Assembly: GCA_934130325.1 (NCBI GenBank)
Contig: CAKOYA010000002.1
Location: 16,098 to 80,097 of the forward strand
DNA length: 64,000 bases
Source: an uncultured Clostridia bacterium
Lineage (GTDB): Bacteria; Bacillota; Clostridia; TANB77; CAG-465
Direction: 5' to 3'
The notes under the pieces are model-generated. The model worked only from the letters and a program-made list of their open reading frames with translations, did no database searches and had not been told where the DNA came from. A program made the position numbers and the translations under genes. Below are positions 4,493 to 16,017 of this stretch, in pieces (position 1 is the first letter of the stretch; each line of letters opens with the position of its first letter).

Positions 4493-4837
4493 ATGTTACA
4501 TACATTTATTATAAAAAGAAGTGGTAAGTTAAAGTATATACTAAAAAGAGGAGAATATTATAATAAAAAAAATTTAGTTGTACATTATTTACATAATAAT
4601 AAGAAAAATAACTTTTTTGCAGTTTGTGTATCAAAGAAAAATGGAAATAGCGTTGAGAGAAATAAATTAAAAAGGTGGGCAAGAGAAATATACAAAATGG
4701 AGGAATCACAATTAAAAACAGGATGCGATATAATTATTTTGTATAAAAAAACAACTAAATTTTATGATCTTAATTTTACTACTGTAAAAAATGAAATTAT
4801 TGATTGTTTTGAAAGGTTAAATTTATATGAAAAATAA
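4493..4837 (+). CDS. rnpA: ribonuclease P protein component
   Basis: 114-aa basic protein directly after rpmH, with an RNKLKRW-type motif. Confidence 0.9.
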   Translation: MLHTFIIKRSGKLKYILKRGEYYNKKNLVVHYLHNNKKNNFFAVCVSKKNGNSVERNKLKRWAREIYKMEESQLKTGCDIIILYKKTTKFYDLNFTTVKNEIIDCFERLNLYEK

Positions 4838-5087
4838 TGTTATAATTAAATGTCTTTTAAGAAAATTAATAAAGATTCCCAGTGTAATAGAAATATTTCT
4901 AATTGATATATATAAAAAATATATTTCTAATGCGTTTGGAAAAAGATGTATATATTATCCTTCTTGTTCTACATATGTTAGACAAGCAGTTGACAAATAT
5001 GGTATAATTAAAGGTAATTTAATTGGTATAAAAAGATTGATAAAATGTAACCCATTTTCAAATGGGGGAATTGACTATTTAAAATGA
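4827..5087 (+). CDS. yidD: membrane protein insertion efficiency factor YidD
   Basis: YPSCSTY...KCNPFSNGGIDY motifs, located between rnpA and yidC. Confidence 0.9.
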   Translation: MKNNVIIKCLLRKLIKIPSVIEIFLIDIYKKYISNAFGKRCIYYPSCSTYVRQAVDKYGIIKGNLIGIKRLIKCNPFSNGGIDYLK

Positions 5088-5101
5088 AAAGGAGCGTTTA
5101 A

Positions 5102-5941
5102 ATGATAAATGCAATAGCTAGTTTTTTTGGCATGATAATTAGAATAATATATGATTTAGTAAATCAAAATTATTTTATTTCAATAATTATATTTACGTTT
5201 TTAACTAAGCTTATATTATTTCCATTATCTTGGATGCAAATAAAATCAACTGAAAATATGCAAAAAATTGCACCTATGGCCAAAAAAATACAGGATAAAT
5301 ATAAAAATGATAAAGAAAAGCAAGCAGAAGAGCTAACAAAATTGTATTCTGAAAATAAAATAAATCCACTTGGAGGGTGTTTACCTATTTTAATACAGTT
5401 TCCAATAATAATAGCAATGTTTGCTATTGTAAGGCAACCTCTTACATATATAACACAAACTCCTTTTGAAGAGATAAAGACGTATACTCAAGAGATTTTA
5501 CAAAAAGATGATGTTAGTGTTAATGAAGTAAAAAGTAATGAGCTTACTGTTGCTAAAGAAAAAAATTTAATTGATATGAATGTAGGAATGGGAATTAATA
5601 TGGGAGATGTTCCATCTAGTGTGTTTAGTAAAGATTTGGAAAAAAGAGCGAATCCTATATCTATTGTAATTCCTATACTTACAGTTGTATTTTCTATTAT
5701 ACAATCTAAGATAACTCAAAAAAATTCTACAATGACAGATGAACAAAAAGAAATGCAGAAATCTATGAATTTGACTTTACCATTAATATCTGGTATGTTT
5801 GCATATACGATGCCTCTAGCATTAGGAATATATTGGTTATTTGGAAATATATTACAGATTTTACAGCAATTATTTATTTCTGCTAAGATAAAAAATGATA
5901 ATAAAAAAGGGGTATTATCCTTAGATAAAGGAGGAAAATAA
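5102..5941 (+). CDS. yidC: YidC/Oxa1 family membrane insertase (SpoIIIJ-like)
   Basis: Multi-pass membrane protein. GCLPILIQFPI motif. Synteny. Confidence 0.9.
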   Translation: MINAIASFFGMIIRIIYDLVNQNYFISIIIFTFLTKLILFPLSWMQIKSTENMQKIAPMAKKIQDKYKNDKEKQAEELTKLYSENKINPLGGCLPILIQFPIIIAMFAIVRQPLTYITQTPFEEIKTYTQEILQKDDVSVNEVKSNELTVAKEKNLIDMNVGMGINMGDVPSSVFSKDLEKRANPISIVIPILTVVFSIIQSKITQKNSTMTDEQKEMQKSMNLTLPLISGMFAYTMPLALGIYWLFGNILQILQQLFISAKIKNDNKKGVLSLDKGGK

Positions 5942-5942
5942 T

Positions 5943-6599
5943 ATGAAAAAAGTAACAGAACAAATGGCTAAAACAGTAGAAGAAGCAATAAGAAAAGGAC
6001 TTGAGGAATTAAAAGTTTCAAGAGATGATGTAATTATAGAGGTATTAGAGGAACCTACTTCTGGTGGAGTTTTGGGTATACTTTCTGCTAAGCTTGCTAA
6101 GGTAAGACTTACAGTTAACAAAAAGATTACAGATGAACAGTCTGAAAAGACTAAAAAAAGATTAAATGATATTTTAGAAAATATTTTTAAGATTACAGGA
6201 GAATCAGATATATCATATGTGATAGAAAAGTCAGATAATCAAATGCTTTTAACAATAAAAGGTGATAAAGTATCACATTTAATAGGTTATAAAGGAAAAA
6301 CAATTGAGTCATTGCAATCATTATTGAATTCTATTTTGCAAAGAGAAGATGAAGATTATGCAAAAGTTTTTGTAGAGATTAATGATTATAAAAAACAGAA
6401 AGAAGAAAAGCTAAGAAGATTAGCTAATAAAATGGCAGATAATGTAATAAAATTTAGAAAATCTATAAGATTAGAACCTATGTCAGCTTATGAGAGATTA
6501 ATTATACATACAGAACTTGCAAATAGAAAAGATGTAGAAACTGAGAGTTACGGTGAAGAGCCAAGAAGAAGAGTAGTAATAAAGAAAAAATATTATTAA
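5943..6599 (+). CDS. jag: Jag/KhpB RNA-binding protein (KH + R3H domains)
   Basis: GYKGKTIESLQ (KH) and ERLIIH (R3H) motifs, located downstream of yidC. Confidence 0.88.
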   Translation: MKKVTEQMAKTVEEAIRKGLEELKVSRDDVIIEVLEEPTSGGVLGILSAKLAKVRLTVNKKITDEQSEKTKKRLNDILENIFKITGESDISYVIEKSDNQMLLTIKGDKVSHLIGYKGKTIESLQSLLNSILQREDEDYAKVFVEINDYKKQKEEKLRRLANKMADNVIKFRKSIRLEPMSAYERLIIHTELANRKDVETESYGEEPRRRVVIKKKYY

Positions 6600-6643
6600 A
6601 AGTCAGCTTTTGCTGGCTTTTATATAGGAAAGGAAAAATAGTT

Positions 6644-8020
6644 ATGTCAACAGATACAATAGCTGCTATTGGAACAGCACTTTCAAATAGTGGTATAAGC
6701 ATAATTAGAATTAGTGGAAATAAAAGTTTGGAAATAATAGATAAAATATTTAAAACAAAATCATTAATAAAACCAAATACTATAATTTATGGAAAAATAT
6801 ATGATGGAAATATTCATTTAGACAATGTGCTTGTATCATATTTTAAGTCACCTAAATCTTTTACTGGTGAAGATATTTGTGAAATAAATTGTCATGGTGG
6901 AATAAGCATAACAAGAGAAATATTAGAATTAGTTTTAAGAAGTGGTGCAAGACTTGCTGAGCCAGGAGAATTTTCAAAAAGAGCATTTCTAAATGGTAAA
7001 ATGGACTTATCTCAGGCTGAAGCTGTTATAAACCTTATAAATGCTAAAACTCGCACTGCAACTCGAGTTGCAAGTAATCAACTTGATGGCAATGTGTCGA
7101 ATAAAATAAAATATTTAAGAGAAGAATTGATTGAACTTTTAGCACATATAGAAGTAAGTATTGATTATCCTGAATATGATTATGAAGAAGTAGAAAATGA
7201 AAATGTAATTAAACTGTTAGATAAGAAAATTAATGAAATAAATAAAATCTTGCAAACTTATGAACATGGAAGATATATAAAGGACGGGGTAAATGTAGCA
7301 ATACTTGGAAAACCAAATGTTGGAAAATCTTCGTTATTAAATAATTTAGCTAACTACGAAAAGGCTATTGTGACGGATATACCTGGAACTACTAGAGATA
7401 TAGTGGAAGAAACAATAAATATAGGAAGTATAGTTTTAAATATTTCTGATACAGCTGGTATAAGAGATACTGAAGATATAGTTGAAAAAATTGGTGTAGA
7501 AAAAAGCATAAAAAAATTGGATGAAGTTGATCTTGTAATATATATATTAAGTGCAGATGAAAATATAAAGAAAACAGATATTAATATTCTTTCCAAAATT
7601 CAAAATAAAGGAATTAAATTAATAACGGTGATAAATAAGATGGATAAAAAAGAAAAAACGATTTTTGATAGCATTTTGAACGAATTAAATAAAATAAATG
7701 TAAAAAATTTGGTCCAAGTATCTGTAATTAAAAATGAAGGAATAGAAAAATTAAAAGAAGAGATAGAAAATATGTTTTTGAATTCTAATTTAGATTATGA
7801 ACAAGAGTTAGTTTTAACAAACTCAAGACATAAGGATTTGTTGATAAAGAGTATAGAGTATTTAAATTTGGCAAAAAATGAAATATCTTTAAACAATCCA
7901 ATTGACATAATATCAATATATGTAAAAAAGGCTACATCAACACTTGGCGAAATTATAGGTACTGATATAAATATTGATGTTGCAAATAAAATCTTTGAAA
8001 AGTTTTGTTTAGGAAAATAG
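6644..8020 (+). CDS. mnmE: tRNA modification GTPase MnmE
   Basis: GKPNVGKSSLLN G1 motif, DTAG G3 motif, C-terminal FCLGK. Confidence 0.96.
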   Translation: MSTDTIAAIGTALSNSGISIIRISGNKSLEIIDKIFKTKSLIKPNTIIYGKIYDGNIHLDNVLVSYFKSPKSFTGEDICEINCHGGISITREILELVLRSGARLAEPGEFSKRAFLNGKMDLSQAEAVINLINAKTRTATRVASNQLDGNVSNKIKYLREELIELLAHIEVSIDYPEYDYEEVENENVIKLLDKKINEINKILQTYEHGRYIKDGVNVAILGKPNVGKSSLLNNLANYEKAIVTDIPGTTRDIVEETINIGSIVLNISDTAGIRDTEDIVEKIGVEKSIKKLDEVDLVIYILSADENIKKTDINILSKIQNKGIKLITVINKMDKKEKTIFDSILNELNKINVKNLVQVSVIKNEGIEKLKEEIENMFLNSNLDYEQELVLTNSRHKDLLIKSIEYLNLAKNEISLNNPIDIISIYVKKATSTLGEIIGTDINIDVANKIFEKFCLGK

Positions 8021-8029
8021 GTGGTAAAT

Positions 8030-9934
8030 ATGGAAAAAATAGAGAAAGAAGATTATATATTAGGAGAATATGATGTTATAGTTATAGGTGCCGGACACGC
8101 GGGGTGCGAAGCAGCATTAGCATCGGCTAGATTAGGTAAAAAGACTGCTGTTTTTGTTATAAATCTAGATACACTTGCAAATATGCCATGTAATCCAAGT
8201 ATTGGTGGAACATCTAAGGGACATTTAGTAAGAGAAATTGATGCTTTAGGTGGAGAAATGGCAAAAAATGCTGATAAAACTTTTATTCAGTCAAAAATGT
8301 TGAATAAATCTAAGGGACCAGCTGTACATTCGTTAAGAGTTCAGTCAGATAGAAGAATGTATCATATAGAAATGAAAAAAACAATGGAAGAGCAAGAAAA
8401 TTTAGATATTTACCAAGCAGAAGTAGTTGAAATATTAACTAAAAATGGATGTGTAACGGGTATTAAAACTAAAATAGGTGCAACTTTTTTAACTAAAGCT
8501 ATTGTAGTTGCTACAGGGACTTATTTAAAAGGTAAAGTAATTATTGGTGAAGTTTCATATGAAAGTGGACCGGATGGTGTTTTTCCTGCTAACGATTTAT
8601 CTCAAAGTTTAATTAATATAGGTGTAGGTCTTAGACGTTTTAAGACAGGTACTCCTGCTAGAATTAATGTAAGAAACATGGACCTTGAAAAGATGGAACC
8701 GCAATATGGTGATGAGAAAATAACTCCATTTTCTTTTGAAAATGAGGAAAATGAAGATATTATTAATAAGAAACAGGTTAATTGTTATTTAACATATACA
8801 AATAATAAAACTCATGAAATTATAATGAATAACCTACATAGATCTCCGATATATAGTGGAAGAATACATGGAATAGGACCTCGTTATTGTCCATCTATTG
8901 AGGATAAAGTTGTAAGATTTAGTGATAAAGAAAGACATCAATTATTTATTGAACCATTAGGTGAAAAAACATTAGAAATGTATATCCAAGGAATGTCATC
9001 ATCACTTCCAGAAGAAGTGCAAATAGAGATGTATAGAACAGTTAAAGGGCTCGAAAATGCTAAGATGATGAGGCCTGCTTATGCTATTGAATATGATTGT
9101 ATTGATTCTACTAATTTAAGCCTAAATTTAGAGTACAAGGGGATTTCTGGACTTTTCTTTGCTGGTCAAGTAAATGGTAGCTCTGGATATGAAGAGGCTG
9201 CTGCTCAGGGAATTATGGCTGGTATTAATGCAAGTAGAAAAGTAGATAATTTAGATCCATTTATTCTTGATAGATCAGAAGCTTATATTGGAGTATTAAT
9301 AGATGATCTAATTACAAAAGGAACAAATGAGCCTTATAGAATGATGACATCAAGATCTGAATATAGGTTAATGTTAAGACAAGATAATGCAGATTTAAGG
9401 TTAACACAGAAAGGGTATGAATTAGGTTTAATTTCACATGAAAGATATAAAAAGTTTATAAATAAAAGAAATATGATAGAAAATGAAATTAACAGATTAA
9501 AAAATGTAAAAATAAAGCCTAGTGAAAGTGTTAATATGTTATTAAAAGAGTTAGGTAGTTCACCTATAGAGTCTGGAATTAGACTTTCAGATTTATTAAA
9601 AAGAAGTGAACTTACTTATGAGAATTTGTGTGGTATAGACATTAATAGAGAAGATTTACCAGATTCAGTGAAGGAAGAAGCTGAAATAGCAATTAAATAT
9701 GAAGGATATATTAAATTACAGTTGGAACAGATTGAAGAATTTAAAAGACTTGAAAATAAAAAGTTACCTTTAGAAATTGATTATGAGGAAATTAAAGGAT
9801 TGAGTTTGGAAGCTAGACAGAAATTAAATAAGCAAAAGCCATTATCTGTTGGTCAAGCTTCTAGAATATCAGGTGTTTCACCTGCAGATATATCAGTACT
9901 TTTGATATATTTAAGTCAAAATAATATTAAATAA
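8030..9934 (+). CDS. mnmG: tRNA uridine 5-carboxymethylaminomethyl modification enzyme MnmG
   Basis: [19 protein letters not shown] motif. The track ORF begins at GTG 8021. ATG 8030 sits 5 nt after AGGTGG and is preferred. Confidence 0.95.
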
Positions 9935-9949
9935 GTGTGAGGTTTTCAT

Positions 9950-10684
9950 ATGAAAATAAATGAAATTGATTTTAAAGAAGTTTTAAAAAAAGAGGCATTA
10001 AATATAGGTTTAGAACTTACAAATGAACAATTACAAAAGTTTCAAAAATATAAAGAGTTATTATTGGAGTGGAATGAAAAAATGAATTTGACAGCTATAA
10101 CAGATGATTATGGCGTTATAATGAAACATTTTATTGATTGCTTAGAAGTAGTAAAATATATAGATGATGGGAGTAATATTATAGATATAGGCACTGGAGC
10201 AGGATTTCCAGGAATAGTTATTTCAATATATTTTGAGAATAAAATAAGAATAACTTTACTTGATTCTTTAAATAAAAGACTAATATTTCTAAATGAAGTT
10301 AGAAATAAACTTAATTTAGTAAATGTTGAAATTATTCATTCAAGAGCAGAAGATTATATACAAAAAGATAATATACGTAGCGGATATGATGTAGTTGTAT
10401 CAAGAGCTGTGGCTCCTTTGAATGTACTTTTAGAATATGACATTCCATATTTAAAAGTTGGAAAAAAGGCATTATTTTTAAAAGGTGACAATGTAAAAAA
10501 TGAGATAGAGAATGCTAGTAATGCATTAAAAATTCTTAATTCTAAAATATATAATATATATGAATATAGTTACACAGTTGAAAGTGAAAAATATGATAGA
10601 AGTATATTAGAAGTAATGAAGGTTAGTGAGGTAAACAAGAAGTATCCAAGAAATTATGGGAAAATAAAAAAACAGCCATTATAA
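9950..10684 (+). CDS. rsmG: 16S rRNA (guanine527-N7)-methyltransferase RsmG
   Basis: DIGTGAGFPG SAM motif. Synteny after mnmG. Confidence 0.93.
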   Translation: MKINEIDFKEVLKKEALNIGLELTNEQLQKFQKYKELLLEWNEKMNLTAITDDYGVIMKHFIDCLEVVKYIDDGSNIIDIGTGAGFPGIVISIYFENKIRITLLDSLNKRLIFLNEVRNKLNLVNVEIIHSRAEDYIQKDNIRSGYDVVVSRAVAPLNVLLEYDIPYLKVGKKALFLKGDNVKNEIENASNALKILNSKIYNIYEYSYTVESEKYDRSILEVMKVSEVNKKYPRNYGKIKKQPL

Positions 10685-10710
10685 AATAATTAAAATTATG
10701 TAAAAACAAA

Positions 10711-10758
10711 AAAAGAGTAGATAAAAAATAAAATTTTGAATTTACTCTTTTTTTTTAT
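10711..10758 (+). terminator. putative terminator after rsmG
   Basis: AAAGAGTA / TACTCTTT stem with a long loop, followed by a T9 run. Confidence 0.4.
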
Positions 10759-10798
10759 TGCAAAATGTAATATAATATATTTACGAGGTGAAATTAAC

Positions 10799-11569
10799 GT
10801 GGCAAAAATTATATCAATTGCAAATCAAAAGGGTGGTGTAGGTAAAACTACTACTGCTGTTAATTTAAGTGCTTGTATAGCACAGAAGGGAAAAAAAGTA
10901 TTATTAATAGATATTGATCCTCAAGGTAACGCAACCAGTGGATTGGGAGTGGAAGCACATGAAGGTAAATCAATATATAATGTATTAGTTGAAGATTTAG
11001 ATATTTCAGAAACTTTACATAATACAATGCTTAAAAAACTAGATGTATGTCCAGCTAACATTAATTTAGCAGGAGCTGAAATCGAACTTGTGTCAATGGT
11101 TTCAAGGGAAACTAGATTAAAAGAAGCTATTGAGAGTGTAAAGGAAAATTATGATTATATTTTAATTGATTGTCCTCCATCGCTTGGGTTGATAACTTTA
11201 AATGCTTTTACCGCATCTGATAGTGTACTTGTGCCTATACAGTGTGAGTATTACGCATTAGAAGGATTAGGTCAATTGGTAAATACGATAAAATTAGTGC
11301 AAAAGAGATTGAATAAGAATCTTGAAATAGAAGGAGTTGTCCTTACAATGTATGATTCTAGAACCAATCTTTCAACAGAAGTTGCAAATGAGGTTGAAAA
11401 GTATTTTGGAAATAAAGTATTTCAAACTATAATTCCAAGAAATATTAGATTAAGTGAAGCACCATCTCATGCACTTCCTATATCATTATATGATCCAAAT
11501 TCTAAGGGAGCTGAAAAATATAAAAAATTGGCTAGTGAAATAATTAAATTAAATGGAAAAGGGGTATAA
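10799..11569 (+). CDS. soj: ParA/Soj chromosome partitioning ATPase
   Basis: GTG start after a GAGGTG RBS gives VAKIISIANQKGGVGKTTT (deviant Walker A). The long upstream extension in the track has no RBS. Confidence 0.93.
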   Translation: MAKIISIANQKGGVGKTTTAVNLSACIAQKGKKVLLIDIDPQGNATSGLGVEAHEGKSIYNVLVEDLDISETLHNTMLKKLDVCPANINLAGAEIELVSMVSRETRLKEAIESVKENYDYILIDCPPSLGLITLNAFTASDSVLVPIQCEYYALEGLGQLVNTIKLVQKRLNKNLEIEGVVLTMYDSRTNLSTEVANEVEKYFGNKVFQTIIPRNIRLSEAPSHALPISLYDPNSKGAEKYKKLASEIIKLNGKGV

Positions 11570-11572
11570 TTA

Positions 11573-12463
11573 ATGACTAAGACTAAAGGTTTAGGTAGAG
11601 GGTTAGATGCTTTCTTTGGCAATGATATAAAAGAGGTAGAAGAAATTGTACAGCCAAAGAAAGAAAAAAAATATAAAGAAATTGATAAAGTGGTAGAGTT
11701 AAATATTACAGAAATAGAACCTATGCTTAATCAGCCAAGAAAAATTTTTGATAAAGAAAAATTAGACGAACTTGCTGATTCAATAAAAGAACACGGAGTT
11801 CTTCAACCAATTCTTGTGGTAAAAGATGAAAATGGGTATACTATTGTAGCTGGTGAAAGAAGATGGAGAGCAGCAAAAAAAGCAGGACTTAAAGAAATTC
11901 CAGCAATAATAAAGGATTATACTGATGGTAAAAAGAAACAAGTAGCTCTTATAGAAAATATACAAAGAGAAGATTTAAATATTGTAGAAATTGCAAGGGC
12001 AATAAAGGAACTTATGGAGATTGATGGATACACTCAGTCAGAAGTTGCAAAAATTACTGGTAAATCACTTCCAACAGTTTCAAATATAACAAGGCTTTTG
12101 AAATTACCAGATGAAATTTTGGAGTATATCTTAGATGGAAAACTTGTAGAAGGGCAAGCTAGGGCTTTACTAGCTATTGATAATAGAGATAAACAAATAG
12201 AAATTGCCCAAAAAATTATTGAAAAGAAGCTTACTGTAAGAGAAGTAGAAAAATTAATTTATGGTGCTGAAGAATATACTAGAAAGGCAAATAAAAAACA
12301 ACCTAAAACTGTGTATTATCAGAAAATAGAAGATAGTTTGAAAAATTACTTTGGATATAAAGTAAAAATTGATTCAAATAAGAAACATCAAAAACTTATC
12401 ATTGAATATAACGATGAAGAGGGATTAAATAGTTTATTAGATAAACTAGATATAAAATTATAG
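11573..12463 (+). CDS. spo0J: ParB/Spo0J partition protein
   Basis: GVLQPILV and GERRWRAAKKAGL ParB boxes. HTH region. Confidence 0.93.
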   Translation: MTKTKGLGRGLDAFFGNDIKEVEEIVQPKKEKKYKEIDKVVELNITEIEPMLNQPRKIFDKEKLDELADSIKEHGVLQPILVVKDENGYTIVAGERRWRAAKKAGLKEIPAIIKDYTDGKKKQVALIENIQREDLNIVEIARAIKELMEIDGYTQSEVAKITGKSLPTVSNITRLLKLPDEILEYILDGKLVEGQARALLAIDNRDKQIEIAQKIIEKKLTVREVEKLIYGAEEYTRKANKKQPKTVYYQKIEDSLKNYFGYKVKIDSNKKHQKLIIEYNDEEGLNSLLDKLDIKL

Positions 12464-12472
12464 GTGGGTAAT

Positions 12473-12901
12473 ATGGTAGAAAGAACAGGAAGGGCAATTA
12501 TATTTGATAAAAATGATAATATTATCTTTATTAAGAGAAAAAAATTTAATAAAGATATGTCTATAAATAAGATATATTATACATTTCCAGGTGGTCATTT
12601 AGAAGGAAATGAATCTTTTGAAGAGGCTGTAATTAGAGAAGTGTATGAAGAATTAAGCTTAAAAATATCAATAGATAAAGAGTTTGTACATTTATTTAAT
12701 AAAGATTTAAAAAGAGACGAAATATTTTATATATCAAATATAATAGGCGGTGTATTGCATGCTGGTAATGGTCCTGAATTTCAAAATATAGATTATTTAA
12801 AATATGGAAAGTATGAAATAGTTAGCTTAAATAAAGGTGAATTAGGAAAATATAACATACTTCCTGTTGAGGTAAAGGAAAAAATATTAAAAGAATTATA
12901 A
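12473..12901 (+). CDS. NUDIX hydrolase
   Basis: NUDIX box GGHLEGNESFEEAVIREVYEELSL. ATG 12473 follows AGGTGGG. The track ORF starts at GTG 12464. Confidence 0.8.
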   Translation: MVERTGRAIIFDKNDNIIFIKRKKFNKDMSINKIYYTFPGGHLEGNESFEEAVIREVYEELSLKISIDKEFVHLFNKDLKRDEIFYISNIIGGVLHAGNGPEFQNIDYLKYGKYEIVSLNKGELGKYNILPVEVKEKILKEL

Positions 12902-12967: not shown

Positions 12968-13056
12968 GGAAGCGTGTCCGAGTGGTTTAAGGAGTCAGTC
13001 TTGAAAACTGATGATGTCGCAAGGCACCGTGGGTTCGAATCCTACCGCTTCCGCCA
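12968..13056 (+). tRNA. tRNA-Ser (anticodon UGA)
   Basis: Acceptor GGAAGCG/CGCTTCC + G + CCA. Anticodon stem TCAGT/ACTGA with loop CTTGAAA. Long variable arm. GGTTCGAATCC T-loop. Confidence 0.92.
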
Positions 13057-13098: not shown

Positions 13099-13188
13099 GG
13101 AGACGTACCCAAGTGGTGAAGGGGAATGTTTGCTAAACATTTAGGGTCCGCAAGGGCCGCGGAGGTTCGAACCCTCTCGTCTCCGCCA
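13099..13188 (+). tRNA. tRNA-Ser (anticodon GCU)
   Basis: Acceptor GGAGACG/CGTCTCC + G + CCA. Anticodon stem AATGT/ACATT with loop TTGCTAA. Long variable arm. GGTTCGAACCC T-loop. Confidence 0.92.
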
Positions 13189-13203
13189 AAGATAATGTTG
13201 GAG

Positions 13204-13231
13204 AAAACGTTGATTATTCAACGTTTTTTTC
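13204..13231 (+). terminator. rho-independent terminator after the tRNAs
   Basis: AAAACGTTGA / TCAACGTTTT 10-bp stem, 4-nt loop, T-run. Confidence 0.8.
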
Positions 13232-13365
13232 TTTGCGCTAAAAAATGTGTAACATATACTAATGTTTTCTAAAATCGATATTTTACTTGTTTTTGAAGGA
13301 TAACTGTGATATAATGACCGAGGAAATATTTGTTACTCTAAAAATAATTTAAGGAGGAGATTTTA

Positions 13366-15267
13366 ATGTTAAACGAAACCATTACTAAGGATTTGGTGGT
13401 ATTTGATAATGCGTGGGGAAAAATAAATATTCCAGCCGCATTTTGTAAAATTTTGTATCATCCTGCAGTTCAGGCGTTAAAGTTTAAAAAACAACTAGGA
13501 ATGATTGTAAGAAATCCAAGTTTTTCGGGCGGACATCACACACGGTATGATCATGCTATAGGAGTTTATTATGTTGCTACCAAACTTATAGAATCGTGTA
13601 AGAAAAGATTTAAAGGATTTTTTGAAATCACTAAAAAGGAGGAAAATGCTTTTTATTTGAGTGCCTTGCTTCATGATCTTGGGCATAAAAGTGGTTCACA
13701 TGCATTTGAGAGATTTACAAATGTGAGTCATGAAGTTGAAACTTACAATGCAATCTTGAAAATGGAGTCCGATATAGATGAAATATTTGGACAGGGAACA
13801 TGTTATTATATACTTGAAATTCTAAACGATAAAAACAAGATAAAAAAAGAGACAGCATTGAGGGAAAGTAATAAGATAGATTTACTTTTTATTCTGTCTG
13901 AACTTATGGTTGGATCTGTCGATATTGATAGAATTGACTATATAATAAGGGATTATTTAAATATATATGGTAAGAAGAAAGATTTTTCCATTTTATTTGA
14001 GCATATGGAACTAGAACTTGTAAATAATCGTCCTAAAATTGTTTTTAATGAGTCTGCTCTGGGAATTTTAGAAGATTATCTAATTACGAGATTTAGACTA
14101 TATAACGATGTGCATTTTCATCCAAATGCGATAATTCAAGACGAATATTTTAAAAATTTTGTTTTGTCACATTATGAACCCAAAAATATAGATTTATATT
14201 TTACAGAAACGAATCTTAATTACGAAATTTCTAATGTTGATGTGAATGAAAAGCGTTTTGTTGATATACTAGATTATGGAGATTTTTCTTCAATAGTATA
14301 CAAAAAGTTTGAATCCAAAAAAGAAGCGGATATATTTTGGATTAAGCTTTCTACATTGATAGATACAAATAATTTATCCTATTGTGGATATTTGGAAAGG
14401 AAGATTACAATCTACGATAAAGAAAAAAACTGTATCTTGTTAAAGTCTGGATGTGAAATATTTGATATCACGTCAATTTCTAAGATAATAAAAGATAAAA
14501 TAACACAAAATACAATATGTATTTTTGTAGATATGGTTATACTTCAAGAAACTTTATTAAATAATTGTAAAGGTTTGAATTCAGAAGAGATCTGTAATAG
14601 ATTATCCCTTGTTAATTCACTTTTTTCAAAATCAGATAAAGAAGTAGAATATAAGTTTACTTTAAAATGTCAAGAAAATCAAGAATGGAAAGTGGCGGAA
14701 AGTGTTGTATCCAAGCTTTTTAATAAATATTCAAATATTGCTACAAAAACATCTGAGCATGTCAACAATGATGTATATTATTATGTTCCTGGAGTTTTTG
14801 ATGCGAAAAATGGTTCTGTAAGAATTAGATATGTTGATGGTATGATAAAACCTACTATAAAATTTAATTTAAAAGATGAGACTTCAATAACCAAACGTGA
14901 CGAACATAATTTTGAGAATATATCTGAGGCTGAATTTTTGAATGTAGCAAATGATATTTTGAATAAAAAAGGATTTAACGTTGATTTTAATAAGAAAGTG
15001 TCTATATTGAAAATAGAAACTATAAGACAGTTATATACTATTCATATTAAAAATTCTATCATTGAACTGGCCTTAGATAAATGTTTATATGTAAGCGATA
15101 AACGTGGTAGAAGAAAGTTTGATTTTATGATAGAAGTAGAATTTAAAGAAGGAGAAATTTTGGAGTTTTGGAAATTTGTAAATGAGTTAAAGGAAGTATT
15201 AGGGAAAGAAAACATCCTACCATGTACAGAATCAAAGCTTGCAAGAGCTACTAAAGGATTGGAATAA
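13366..15267 (+). CDS. HD-domain (SAMHD1/dGTPase-like) phosphohydrolase fused to a C-terminal CYTH / triphosphate tunnel domain
   Basis: N-terminal motifs: HHTRYDHAIGV, LLHDLGHKSGSHAFE, DIDRIDYIIRD. C-terminal ~200 aa: EVEYKF (ExExK), VRIRYV, TIKFN, KRDEHNF, IEVEFKEG, ESKLARA. GGAGGAG RBS. Extended -10 TGATATAAT at 13307-13315. Confidence 0.75.
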   Translation: MLNETITKDLVVFDNAWGKINIPAAFCKILYHPAVQALKFKKQLGMIVRNPSFSGGHHTRYDHAIGVYYVATKLIESCKKRFKGFFEITKKEENAFYLSALLHDLGHKSGSHAFERFTNVSHEVETYNAILKMESDIDEIFGQGTCYYILEILNDKNKIKKETALRESNKIDLLFILSELMVGSVDIDRIDYIIRDYLNIYGKKKDFSILFEHMELELVNNRPKIVFNESALGILEDYLITRFRLYNDVHFHPNAIIQDEYFKNFVLSHYEPKNIDLYFTETNLNYEISNVDVNEKRFVDILDYGDFSSIVYKKFESKKEADIFWIKLSTLIDTNNLSYCGYLERKITIYDKEKNCILLKSGCEIFDITSISKIIKDKITQNTICIFVDMVILQETLLNNCKGLNSEEICNRLSLVNSLFSKSDKEVEYKFTLKCQENQEWKVAESVVSKLFNKYSNIATKTSEHVNNDVYYYVPGVFDAKNGSVRIRYVDGMIKPTIKFNLKDETSITKRDEHNFENISEAEFLNVANDILNKKGFNVDFNKKVSILKIETIRQLYTIHIKNSIIELALDKCLYVSDKRGRRKFDFMIEVEFKEGEILEFWKFVNELKEVLGKENILPCTESKLARATKGLE

Positions 15268-15277
15268 AAATATTTTT

Positions 15278-15321
15278 AACTGCTAAAAAAGAGCAAAATT
15301 GTATCTTTTTTGGCAGTTTTC
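15278..15321 (+). terminator. rho-independent terminator
   Basis: 15-bp stem AACTGCTAAAAAAGA / TCTTTTTTGGCAGTT (one G-U pair) followed by T residues. Confidence 0.7.
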
Positions 15322-15381: not shown

Positions 15382-16017
15382 ATGAATTTAAAAGAATTTG
15401 GGGATTGGGCATTAAGAGAAGTTAGTGTAGCAAATCCACCTCCTAATTATAAGTATAAGGGTGAATGTGTAAGTTTAATTCAGCAATTATTATATCGTGT
15501 ATTAAACATACCTTTTAAGGCAAGGGGAAATGCAAAAGATTGGGCAACTAATGCAGACGTTCTTAAATATTTTAATAAACTATCATCTGATACAAGGTTA
15601 AAAAAAGGTGATATTTTAGTTTATGGAAGCAATTATGGCGGAGGGTATGGACACTTAGGATTTATTGATGCTAATGGAAAGTATTTTGATCAAAATGGTA
15701 TAAATCTAAGAAAAGTTGGCTATAGAGATAATCCTTTTAATGGATATATATGTGTATTAAGAAGTAAAGAAAATATGAGAATTGATGATATCAATGAATT
15801 TTGGGTTAGAGTTGATAAACCTGAAGCAAATGTAAGGGTAGAACCTAATACTACCTCAAACATTGTGATACAACCTGGAGGATTAGATTGTCTAAAAAAT
15901 GGTGATAAATTTAAAGCAATTGGAATAGTAGACGGTGAAAGTATAAATGGAAATAATAAATGGTATCAATCAGCTAAAGGAAATTATGTATGGTCATATG
16001 GATTAACTAAGATTTAA
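15382..16017 (+). CDS. CHAP-domain peptidoglycan hydrolase with C-terminal SH3b-like domain, no signal peptide
   Basis: GECVSLIQQ (Cys) and GGGYGHLGFI (His) CHAP motifs. The C-terminal WVRVDKPEANVRVEPN...NNKWYQ resembles SH3b. The N-terminus is not hydrophobic. Confidence 0.7.
   Translation: MNLKEFGDWALREVSVANPPPNYKYKGECVSLIQQLLYRVLNIPFKARGNAKDWATNADVLKYFNKLSSDTRLKKGDILVYGSNYGGGYGHLGFIDANGKYFDQNGINLRKVGYRDNPFNGYICVLRSKENMRIDDINEFWVRVDKPEANVRVEPNTTSNIVIQPGGLDCLKNGDKFKAIGIVDGESINGNNKWYQSAKGNYVWSYGLTKI

Follow-up and report, generated by a model that had tools for sequence, protein, structure and literature searches.

A SAMHD1-type HD domain fused to a phosphatase-type triphosphate tunnel domain: a putative two-step dNTP hydrolase encoded beside a tRNA-Ser gene of an uncultured Clostridia bacterium

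A 64,000-nucleotide stretch of DNA from an uncultured Clostridia bacterium (contig CAKOYA010000002.1 of assembly GCA_934130325.1; this whole stretch is referred to as the window) carries, at positions 13366..15267 of the forward strand in the list of open reading frames (ORFs), a gene with an ATG start that encodes a 633-residue fusion of two hydrolase domains. Residues 1 to ~415 (13366..14610, +) form an HD dNTP triphosphohydrolase core of the SAMHD1/EF1143, COG1078 type, including its C-terminal lobe, and residues ~420-633 (14623..15264, +) form a CYTH, or triphosphate tunnel metalloenzyme (TTM), domain of the phosphatase type. This two-domain architecture had been proposed in a first-pass annotation of the same DNA and is correct by hidden Markov model (HMM), profile and structure. 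On balance, we lean towards a single-polypeptide two-step enzyme, in which the HD domain would release inorganic triphosphate (PPPi) from deoxynucleoside triphosphates (dNTPs) and the tunnel domain would cleave it, the two activities and their coupling being predicted from conserved residues and structure models. In the first step, the N-terminal ~415 residues would cleave dNTPs to deoxynucleoside and PPPi; in the second, the C-terminal ~215 residues would hydrolyse that PPPi to pyrophosphate (PPi) and phosphate (Pi). Removal of PPPi would render dNTP breakdown irreversible, and would also prevent product inhibition and the build-up of a strong chelator of Mg2+ and Ca2+.

All three motifs quoted in support of a COG1078-type HD domain are present in the window protein (HHTRYDH, residues 57-63; HDLGHKSGSHAFE, residues 103-115; DIDRIDYIIRD, residues 186-196), and the Pfam HD model passes its threshold (27.2 bits against a cut-off of 22). 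A phmmer search of the PDB aligned residues 11-271 with 2hek, 2o6i (EF1143), 2q14 and many SAMHD1 entries (E 1e-17 to 1e-10), while a profile of the whole family matched 2o6i (8e-47), 2q14, 2hek and SAMHD1 (~1e-36) over positions ~9-313. The metal motif H...HD...D corresponds to H63, H103-D104 and D188, and the residues invariant in 13 aligned homologues are R60, H63, H103, D104, H107, H112, H122, D188, R189, Y192 and D196. We take R60, H107, H112, H122, R189, Y192 and D196 to be the counterparts of SAMHD1 R164, H210, H215, H233, K312, Y315 and D319, a mapping drawn partly from alignments. The full-length AlphaFold model (predicted local distance difference test, pLDDT, 84.2; predicted template modelling score, pTM, 0.80) retrieved 2q14, 2hek, SAMHD1 and EF1143 from the PDB with Foldseek (E 2.5e-15 to 1e-13; target-normalised template modelling score 0.62-0.73), and these alignments extend over 430-490 columns, so that residues 1 to ~415 represent the full SAMHD1-type core and more than an HD motif. 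The region described by Pfam HD_assoc_2 (PF19276) is structurally present, with no match to that model in the window protein and matches in 1 of 13 close homologues and in several members of the long clade described below. A weak match of the window protein to Pfam PDEase_I (E = 0.035) was set aside as generic HD-superfamily similarity. The N-terminal part is a complete SAMHD1/EF1143-type HD core, with predicted dNTP triphosphohydrolase activity.

The last ~200 residues, for which a CYTH pattern had been proposed, carry the motifs EVEYK (426-430), VRIR (485-488), TIK (497-499), IEVEFK (589-594) and ESK (622-624), and homologues, family profile and structure model agree on this assignment though the window protein itself misses the Pfam CYTH model. 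That model is matched by 6 of the 13 full-length homologues (best E 1.2e-14). The C-terminal part of the whole-family profile matches the Escherichia coli inorganic triphosphatase YgiF (5a60) and two Bacillus CYTH proteins, and a profile of the C-terminal domain by itself found CYTH/TTM structures only in the PDB (YgiF 5a60, 5e-9; 3sy3, 4e-8; 2gfg, 6e-6; SaTTM, 2e-3). An AlphaFold model of residues 415-633 (pLDDT 85.6) places strands at model positions 13-19, 45-60, 69-76, 79-87, 97-101, 132-147, 150-163 and 169-181, with an inserted helix (residues 440-455 of the protein) between strands 1 and 2. The top 13 Foldseek matches of this model are all TTM/CYTH proteins, and Med18/20 beta-barrels appear from rank 14. 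First among them is YgiF with bound PPPi (E 1.5e-8; query-normalised template modelling score, TMq, 0.67), followed by SaTTM, PH1819, HpAC1 and BH2851; the class IV adenylyl cyclases 2fjt, 3n10 and 2aca are among the weaker matches (E 4e-5 to 3e-4). At the level of the family, both a tunnel fold and CYTH HMM matches, whose absence the first-pass annotation had said would count against its proposal, were found.

Invariant CYTH residues in the 13-homologue alignment are E426, E428, K430, R486, R488, K499, R554, E567, D571, E590, E592, K594, S623 and K624. Conservation was also followed across 37 representatives of 560-760 residues, one per 50%-identity cluster. Within the ExExK motif (E426-V-E428-Y-K430), E428 and K430 are kept in all 37 representatives and E426 in 36, and the tunnel residues R486, R488, K499 and R554, together with strand-8 E590 and E592, vary little or not at all. 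Published determinants separate the functional classes of this fold: class IV cyclases carry HFxxxxExExK, replace the first Arg of xRxR by a small residue and change the strand-8 ExE to ExA, and W/YxRxR marks thiamine triphosphatases and plant TTM1/2 (Vogt et al., PMC8233210). The corresponding segments of the window protein read LFSKSDK-EVEYK, S-V-R-I-R (with S484 ahead of RxR) and E-V-E. HF is missing from all 37 representatives, each of which has RxR and ExE intact, and in 36 a small residue (T/S/N/A) precedes RxR; the full phosphatase-type combination (HFxxxxExExK absent, RxR intact and preceded by a small residue, ExE intact) is shared by the window protein and all 33 HD-CYTH fusions. We rejected a class IV adenylyl cyclase because the HF motif is absent and RxR and ExE are intact, and a thiamine triphosphatase or plant TTM1/2-like enzyme because S484 stands where an aromatic W/Y would precede RxR. 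By the published determinants, the CYTH domain is a phosphatase-type TTM, the class that includes enzymes specific for PPPi (PPPases), and these determinants together with the nearest solved relatives point to inorganic triphosphatase as its probable activity.

The HD-CYTH family is rare and patchy. Homology searching returned only ~15 full-length relatives (24-73% identity); all are unnamed and of metagenomic origin, and several have a precomputed PF01928 match. A search with the CYTH profile over 1.84 billion cluster representatives gave 2210 matches, and the best 150 of these 2210, which were inspected, include dozens of proteins of 600-720 residues with CYTH at the C-terminus. The HD-CYTH architecture occurs in at least 33 clusters (50% identity) from bacteria and archaea, and all ten representatives that were looked up come solely from Logan, ENA or JGI metagenome assemblies, with no NCBI source or name. 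The complete HD catalytic residue set is kept in 33 of the 37 representatives and the CYTH set across the 37, which argues for selection on both active sites. Larger arrangements also exist: P0076 (874 residues) is an HD-CYTH-AAA_28 protein, and P0137, P0138 and about ten others of 1140-1660 residues carry 480-940 N-terminal residues without an assigned domain ahead of HD-CYTH. Proteins of ~900-950 residues with an N-terminal CYTH domain of the same subfamily were seen as well. Two further searches contributed little to the census. A GTDB scan with the full-length alignment was dominated by generic HD proteins, the best among the matches listed being 29% identical over the N-terminus only, and is uninformative on cultured genomes; a word-indexed search with a profile of the middle region plus CYTH, too insensitive for a census, found seven proteins, none of them named.

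Given that both active sites are conserved and that the tunnel domain bears a triphosphatase signature, a PPPi producer fused to a PPPi destroyer is the most economical reading of the protein. The first-pass annotation had arrived at the same pairing; its domains, phosphatase determinants and conserved sites are borne out, and the coupling between them we infer. A genomic link to PPPi-releasing enzymes that is independent of the fusion is provided by the Dgt-type neighbours of the long clade. Specific bacterial CYTH PPPases exist, and the cellular source of their substrate is described as unknown (PMC3440374). PPPi itself has hardly ever been detected in vivo; it is a strong chelator of divalent cations, and specific CYTH PPPases are seen as 'metabolite proofreading' enzymes (PMC3440374). 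The conserved fusion to a predicted PPPi-producing enzyme, reinforced in the long clade by an adjoining dGTPase, points to a concrete source of PPPi for CYTH tripolyphosphatases. Specific enzymes of this kind have been known for more than ten years, and the fusion makes the origin of their substrate testable.

The gene lies in a slot beside tRNA-Ser(GCU) whose content differs between strains. The first-pass annotation had suggested accessory DNA at this tRNA flank and had proposed a comparison of the region 3' of tRNA-Ser(GCU) in related genomes; this comparison, made on metagenome contigs recovered by ParB anchoring, found that the content of the slot varies both between strains and among relatives. 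Contigs L001 and L100 belong to the same sister species, and their flanks are 96.7-98.3% identical in nucleotide sequence. The 2.1-kb HD-CYTH segment of L001 (7802-9923) is cleanly exchanged in L100 for 0.84 kb (10625-11466) encoding an unrelated 221-residue ORF, with the left breakpoint 5 nucleotides past tRNA-Ser(GCU) and the right breakpoint 6 nucleotides past the HD-CYTH stop codon. The HD-CYTH gene is dispensable within a species and strain-variable. The 221-residue replacement protein, which has a weak DUF4230 match only and no match to a defence model, sheds no light on the kind of slot this is. More distant relatives have, at or between the two tRNA-Ser genes, either MurT/GatD, NAD kinase and an ATP-grasp gene or a 7-kb insert, a variety which indicates that the tRNA-Ser flank is a general hot spot of gene turnover and not specifically a defence island. 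Two side observations concern the same region. In L095, whose ParB is 83% identical, ~7 kb between the tRNA-Ser genes (4840-12013) encode a P-type ATPase, an aminotransferase, DapF, a Nudix protein and small secreted proteins. In L001, a 263-residue ORF between rsmG and parA (4497-5288), absent from L100 and from the window and with no Pfam or PADLOC match, is a second strain-variable gene of the mnmG-rsmG-parAB region.

The genomic contexts of other family members fall into two groups. In the short clade (610-640 residues), which includes the window protein, HD-CYTH is a solitary gene in housekeeping surroundings: P0006 is located between FemAB and rpsF-ssb-rpsR, P0005 beside MscS and isoprenoid genes, and P0011 near Nudix-NrtR and PAP2, with the NrtR-type Nudix gene two genes upstream of HD-CYTH. 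In the long clade (667-693 residues; mutual identity 37-50%), a second HD gene is present alongside in all four bacterial contexts examined (L159 8236-9762; L166 12007-13428; L171 6495-7970; L170 10586-12094). In three of the four it encodes a Dgt-type dGTPase, in either order relative to HD-CYTH and as near as 3 bp. For P0142, the Dgt-type gene lies 239 bp upstream (TIGR01353, 243 bits; PADLOC dGTPase, 1e-78) and transposases and toxin-antitoxin fragments adjoin; for P0091, a Dgt homologue lies 30 bp upstream; and for P0098, the Dgt-type gene is 3 bp downstream (PADLOC, 2.6e-79). The fourth, P0088, has a different HD protein of 502 residues one gene downstream. These arrangements suggest that the long-clade HD-CYTH gene and the second HD gene form a conserved two-gene module. 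The surroundings of P0098 form a defence island, in which a GajB-like UvrD helicase, an HNH protein, a methyl-directed restriction enzyme of type IV (2e-194) and a set of kinase, vWA and PP2C proteins are encoded. The last of these, 3' of the P0098 pair (L166 13718-19339), comprises a protein kinase, a vWA protein, two unassigned proteins and PP2C, followed by a large DEAD helicase, and may be another conflict system of the island.

These observations describe a dispensable, strain-variable accessory gene that would lower or reshape dNTP pools. For the window gene and its clade, we consider phage defence by dNTP depletion and a non-defence control of dNTP pools about equally likely. A defence role finds favour in a gene that is present at a tRNA flank in one strain and missing there from another, the rare and patchy family, the Dgt pairing, the one defence island and the one mobile-element context. 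The defence models themselves point the other way: PADLOC PDLC02374 gave E = 0.0036 (14.7 bits) over ~90 N-terminal residues, and the window protein is not a member, while NCBIfam TIGR01353 scored it at 15.3 bits against a cut-off of 152. The anti-phage role suggested in the first-pass annotation in this way receives circumstantial support from the strain swap, the Dgt neighbours and the single island, and is weakened by the defence models, the housekeeping context and the absence of the fusion from mobile-element collections. A broader proposal is possible but tentative: HD-CYTH proteins may be a hitherto unrecognised family of dNTP-depletion immune effectors that dispose of their PPPi by-product, acting in one clade as a two-gene module with Dgt, and dNTP triphosphohydrolysis may be the physiological source of the PPPi for whose removal bacterial and archaeal TTM PPPases evolved. 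Should depleting dNTPs on a massive scale really carry a cost, through PPPi accumulation or through product inhibition, this would bear on how SAMHD1-like and Dgt-like defences work. The family appears strain-variable and, in the look-ups, confined to uncultured organisms, and is a candidate accessory or defence gene missed by current defence-finder models.

A number of observations weigh against the two-step enzyme or against the wider role just outlined, and we give them together. Pfam CYTH (PF01928) has no match in the window protein alone, even at E <= 1, and the structure models were built on shallow alignments of 11-13 sequences. The ordinary pyrophosphatase of E. coli can itself hydrolyse PPPi (PMC3440374), and a dedicated PPPase is not obviously needed. 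There is no Dgt gene in the 64-kb window and no Dgt partner in any of the five contexts of the window's clade, and the archaeal member P0083 lies amid MCM, primase and ribosome-biogenesis genes. No HD-CYTH fusion was found in phage records, plasmid records, IMG/VR contigs or BFVD structures, which yielded HD-only or CYTH-only matches. GC content around the gene is flat at ~26-30%, with no anomaly of composition, and the gene stands among housekeeping genes. Finally, the sister species has an orthologue in the same place at 73% amino-acid identity, within the similar divergence of the flanking genes (64-92%). For comparison, MnmG of the sister species is 90% and ParB 92% identical to that of the window, and nucleotide homology extends unbroken, at 79% identity, from parA through the HD-CYTH gene. 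Given this orthologous position and a divergence like that of its neighbours, the gene appears to have been inherited vertically, which speaks against mobility or recent transfer; recent horizontal transfer into the window was rejected on the flat GC, the syntenic sister orthologue and the neighbour-like divergence.

The strongest alternative to a defence role, which we rate only a little short of an even chance, is a housekeeping regulator of dNTP pools (acting, for example, in stationary phase or sporulation), with the strain swap as ordinary flux at a rearrangement-prone locus. The location of the gene among housekeeping genes of flat GC, ~9 kb past the mnmE-mnmG-rsmG-parAB cluster, fits such a regulator, as do the housekeeping surroundings of P0006, P0005 and archaeal P0083, the presence of MurT/GatD with NAD kinase or of DapF with an aminotransferase in the tRNA-Ser slot elsewhere, and the failure of the window protein to match defence models. 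Against it stand the dispensability of the gene within a species, the rare and patchy family with no NCBI-named protein among the members looked up, and the pairing of the long clade with Dgt-type dGTPases near transposases, toxin-antitoxin fragments or restriction genes.

Other alternatives concern the chemistry of the protein. SAMHD1-type enzymes are under allosteric control by nucleotide triphosphates, and the CYTH domain is located where other COG1078 proteins end, in an inter-domain arrangement that the full-length pTM of 0.80 suggests to be fixed. The domain might on these grounds be a sensor that binds a triphosphate ligand (nucleoside triphosphate (NTP) or dNTP, PPPi, or short polyphosphate) and switches the HD dNTPase on or off, replacing or adding to the nucleotide allosteric sites of SAMHD1 and EF1143. 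We regard this as unlikely, since the metal-binding glutamates of the two ExE motifs, and the Lys/Arg set with them, persist in 36-37 of the 37 representatives, as is typical of active TTM enzymes, whereas domains that only bind a ligand have usually lost some of their catalytic residues.

Less probable again is a CYTH domain that acts on nucleotides and not on free PPPi, either as an NTP/dNTP gamma-phosphatase or as a signal-producing nucleotidyl cyclase. NTP hydrolysis occurs in some TTMs, and class IV cyclases have the same fold (PMC8233210); gamma-phosphatase is a known side activity of the Clostridium thermocellum TTM, and cyclase structures figure among the weaker Foldseek matches given above. 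However, all the published cyclase determinants are absent and the best matches are PPPases, and gamma-phosphatase activity would draw on the substrate of the HD domain with no obvious benefit. Least probable of all is an HD domain acting on another phosphorylated substrate (for instance a ribonucleotide, an alarmone or a nucleic-acid end), with CYTH processing a different triphosphate product: HD proteins are a superfamily of broad function, neither 2hek nor 2q14 has a stated function (both are structural-genomics depositions, under 'hypothetical protein' and 'phosphohydrolase') and the window protein fails Pfam HD_assoc_2, but the SAMHD1-equivalent metal, catalytic and substrate residues are all invariant in the homologue alignment, the whole SAMHD1 core superposes, C-terminal lobe included, and the family profile reaches EF1143/SAMHD1 at 1e-47 to 1e-36.

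Compared with characterized enzymes, the two-step HD-CYTH protein that we favour joins two well-known domains in a new variant, which is of interest for its strain-variable slot, for the pairing with Dgt in the long clade and for its bearing on PPPi. With Enterococcus faecalis EF1143 and human SAMHD1 it shares the fold, the H...HD...D metal site and the catalytic and substrate residues, and the same reaction is expected; it differs in its low identity (16-23%), its additional C-terminal CYTH domain, the lack of a SAM domain and the lack of an HD_assoc_2 score. The CYTH PPPases (E. coli YgiF, Nitrosomonas NeuTTM, Sulfolobus SaTTM and Clostridium thermocellum CthTTM) have the same strand-1 ExExK, RxR/K/R lining, strand-8 ExE and eight-stranded tunnel; they are stand-alone or CHAD-fused, whereas the window CYTH domain, ~18-21% identical to them and with the helix at 440-455, is the C-terminus of a putative dNTPase. 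The anti-phage dGTPase (Dgt family; PADLOC dGTPase, NCBIfam NF041026) is likewise an HD enzyme that releases PPPi from dNTPs, and the Dgt-type genes beside long-clade HD-CYTH match its PADLOC model at ~1e-79, but the window protein belongs to the other branch (SAMHD1/COG1078) and has CYTH. Plant TTM1/TTM2, which combine a P-loop kinase with CYTH, resemble the family in joining CYTH to a nucleotide-metabolism domain, and P0076 adds an AAA_28 P-loop domain; they differ in the partner domain, and in a W/YxRxR motif, absent from the window protein, and a preference for PPi (PMC8233210).

The first-pass annotation had taken the architecture to be uncharacterized. Full-text literature searches turned up no study of its biochemistry or genetics, but the fusion as such is not new: according to PMC8233210, Iyer and Aravind had already listed CYTH-HD hydrolase fusions in 2002. 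That citation places the same superfamily pair in one polypeptide, a correspondence at the level of superfamilies.

The local signals agree with the description of the gene as monocistronic, with its own extended -10 promoter and terminator. Upstream lie, as had been reported, two tRNA-Ser genes on the same strand, tRNA-Ser(UGA) at 12968..13056 (ARAGORN; Rfam tRNA, 57.5 bits) and tRNA-Ser(GCU) at 13099..13188 (ARAGORN), the 3' end of the latter being the left edge of the strain-variable slot. A terminator-like hairpin with a U-run follows at 13200..13231 (+; predicted fold of -16.4 kcal/mol, z = -4.8, equalled by none of 200 shuffles); it would stop the tRNA transcript and so shield the HD-CYTH gene from upstream transcription. 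The extended -10 element TGaTATAAT at 13307..13315 (+), read off the sequence and presumed functional, has a weak -35, and a consensus promoter scan did not list it (poor -35). The ribosome-binding site (RBS) AAGGAGGAG, also read off the sequence, is at 13351..13359 (+), 6 nucleotides 5' of the ATG. Immediately 3' of the stop codon, a second terminator-like hairpin followed by UUUU spans 15278..15318 (+; predicted fold of -19.1 kcal/mol, z = -5.2, equalled by none of 200 shuffles). We take the gene to be monocistronic because strong terminator-like hairpins flank it on either side and it has an extended -10 and RBS of its own.

The HD-CYTH gene is preceded in the window by mnmE-mnmG-rsmG-parA-parB-Nudix and the two tRNA-Ser genes, and is followed by genes for a CHAP protein, DUF308, a ZIP transporter, a low-molecular-weight phosphatase and RpiB; the contigs carrying this locus derive from human gut samples. 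Among named proteins, the best relative of MnmG belongs to a 'Clostridia bacterium' metagenome-assembled genome (82% identity). The Nudix gene (12464-12901, +), whose start directly follows the parB stop codon, matches PADLOC PDC-S07 at 1e-12, which may be generic Nudix similarity. The CHAP-domain gene directly 3' of the fusion gene (15382-16017, +) encodes 211 residues. It had been described as a leaderless lysin: the CHAP domain stands, but the gene has its own RBS, so that 'leaderless' can mean without a signal peptide at most. In the sister species (L001 9995-11506; L100 11538-13053), the CHAP gene is preceded by an opposite-strand gene of 80 residues and a Phage_holin_4_1 holin; the window has 114 bp only where the holin is found in the sister species, and the holin part of an apparent holin-lysin cassette has been lost. 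At 60022-60109 (+), the window also encodes a bacterial small signal recognition particle (SRP) RNA (60.3 bits), an ordinary housekeeping RNA.

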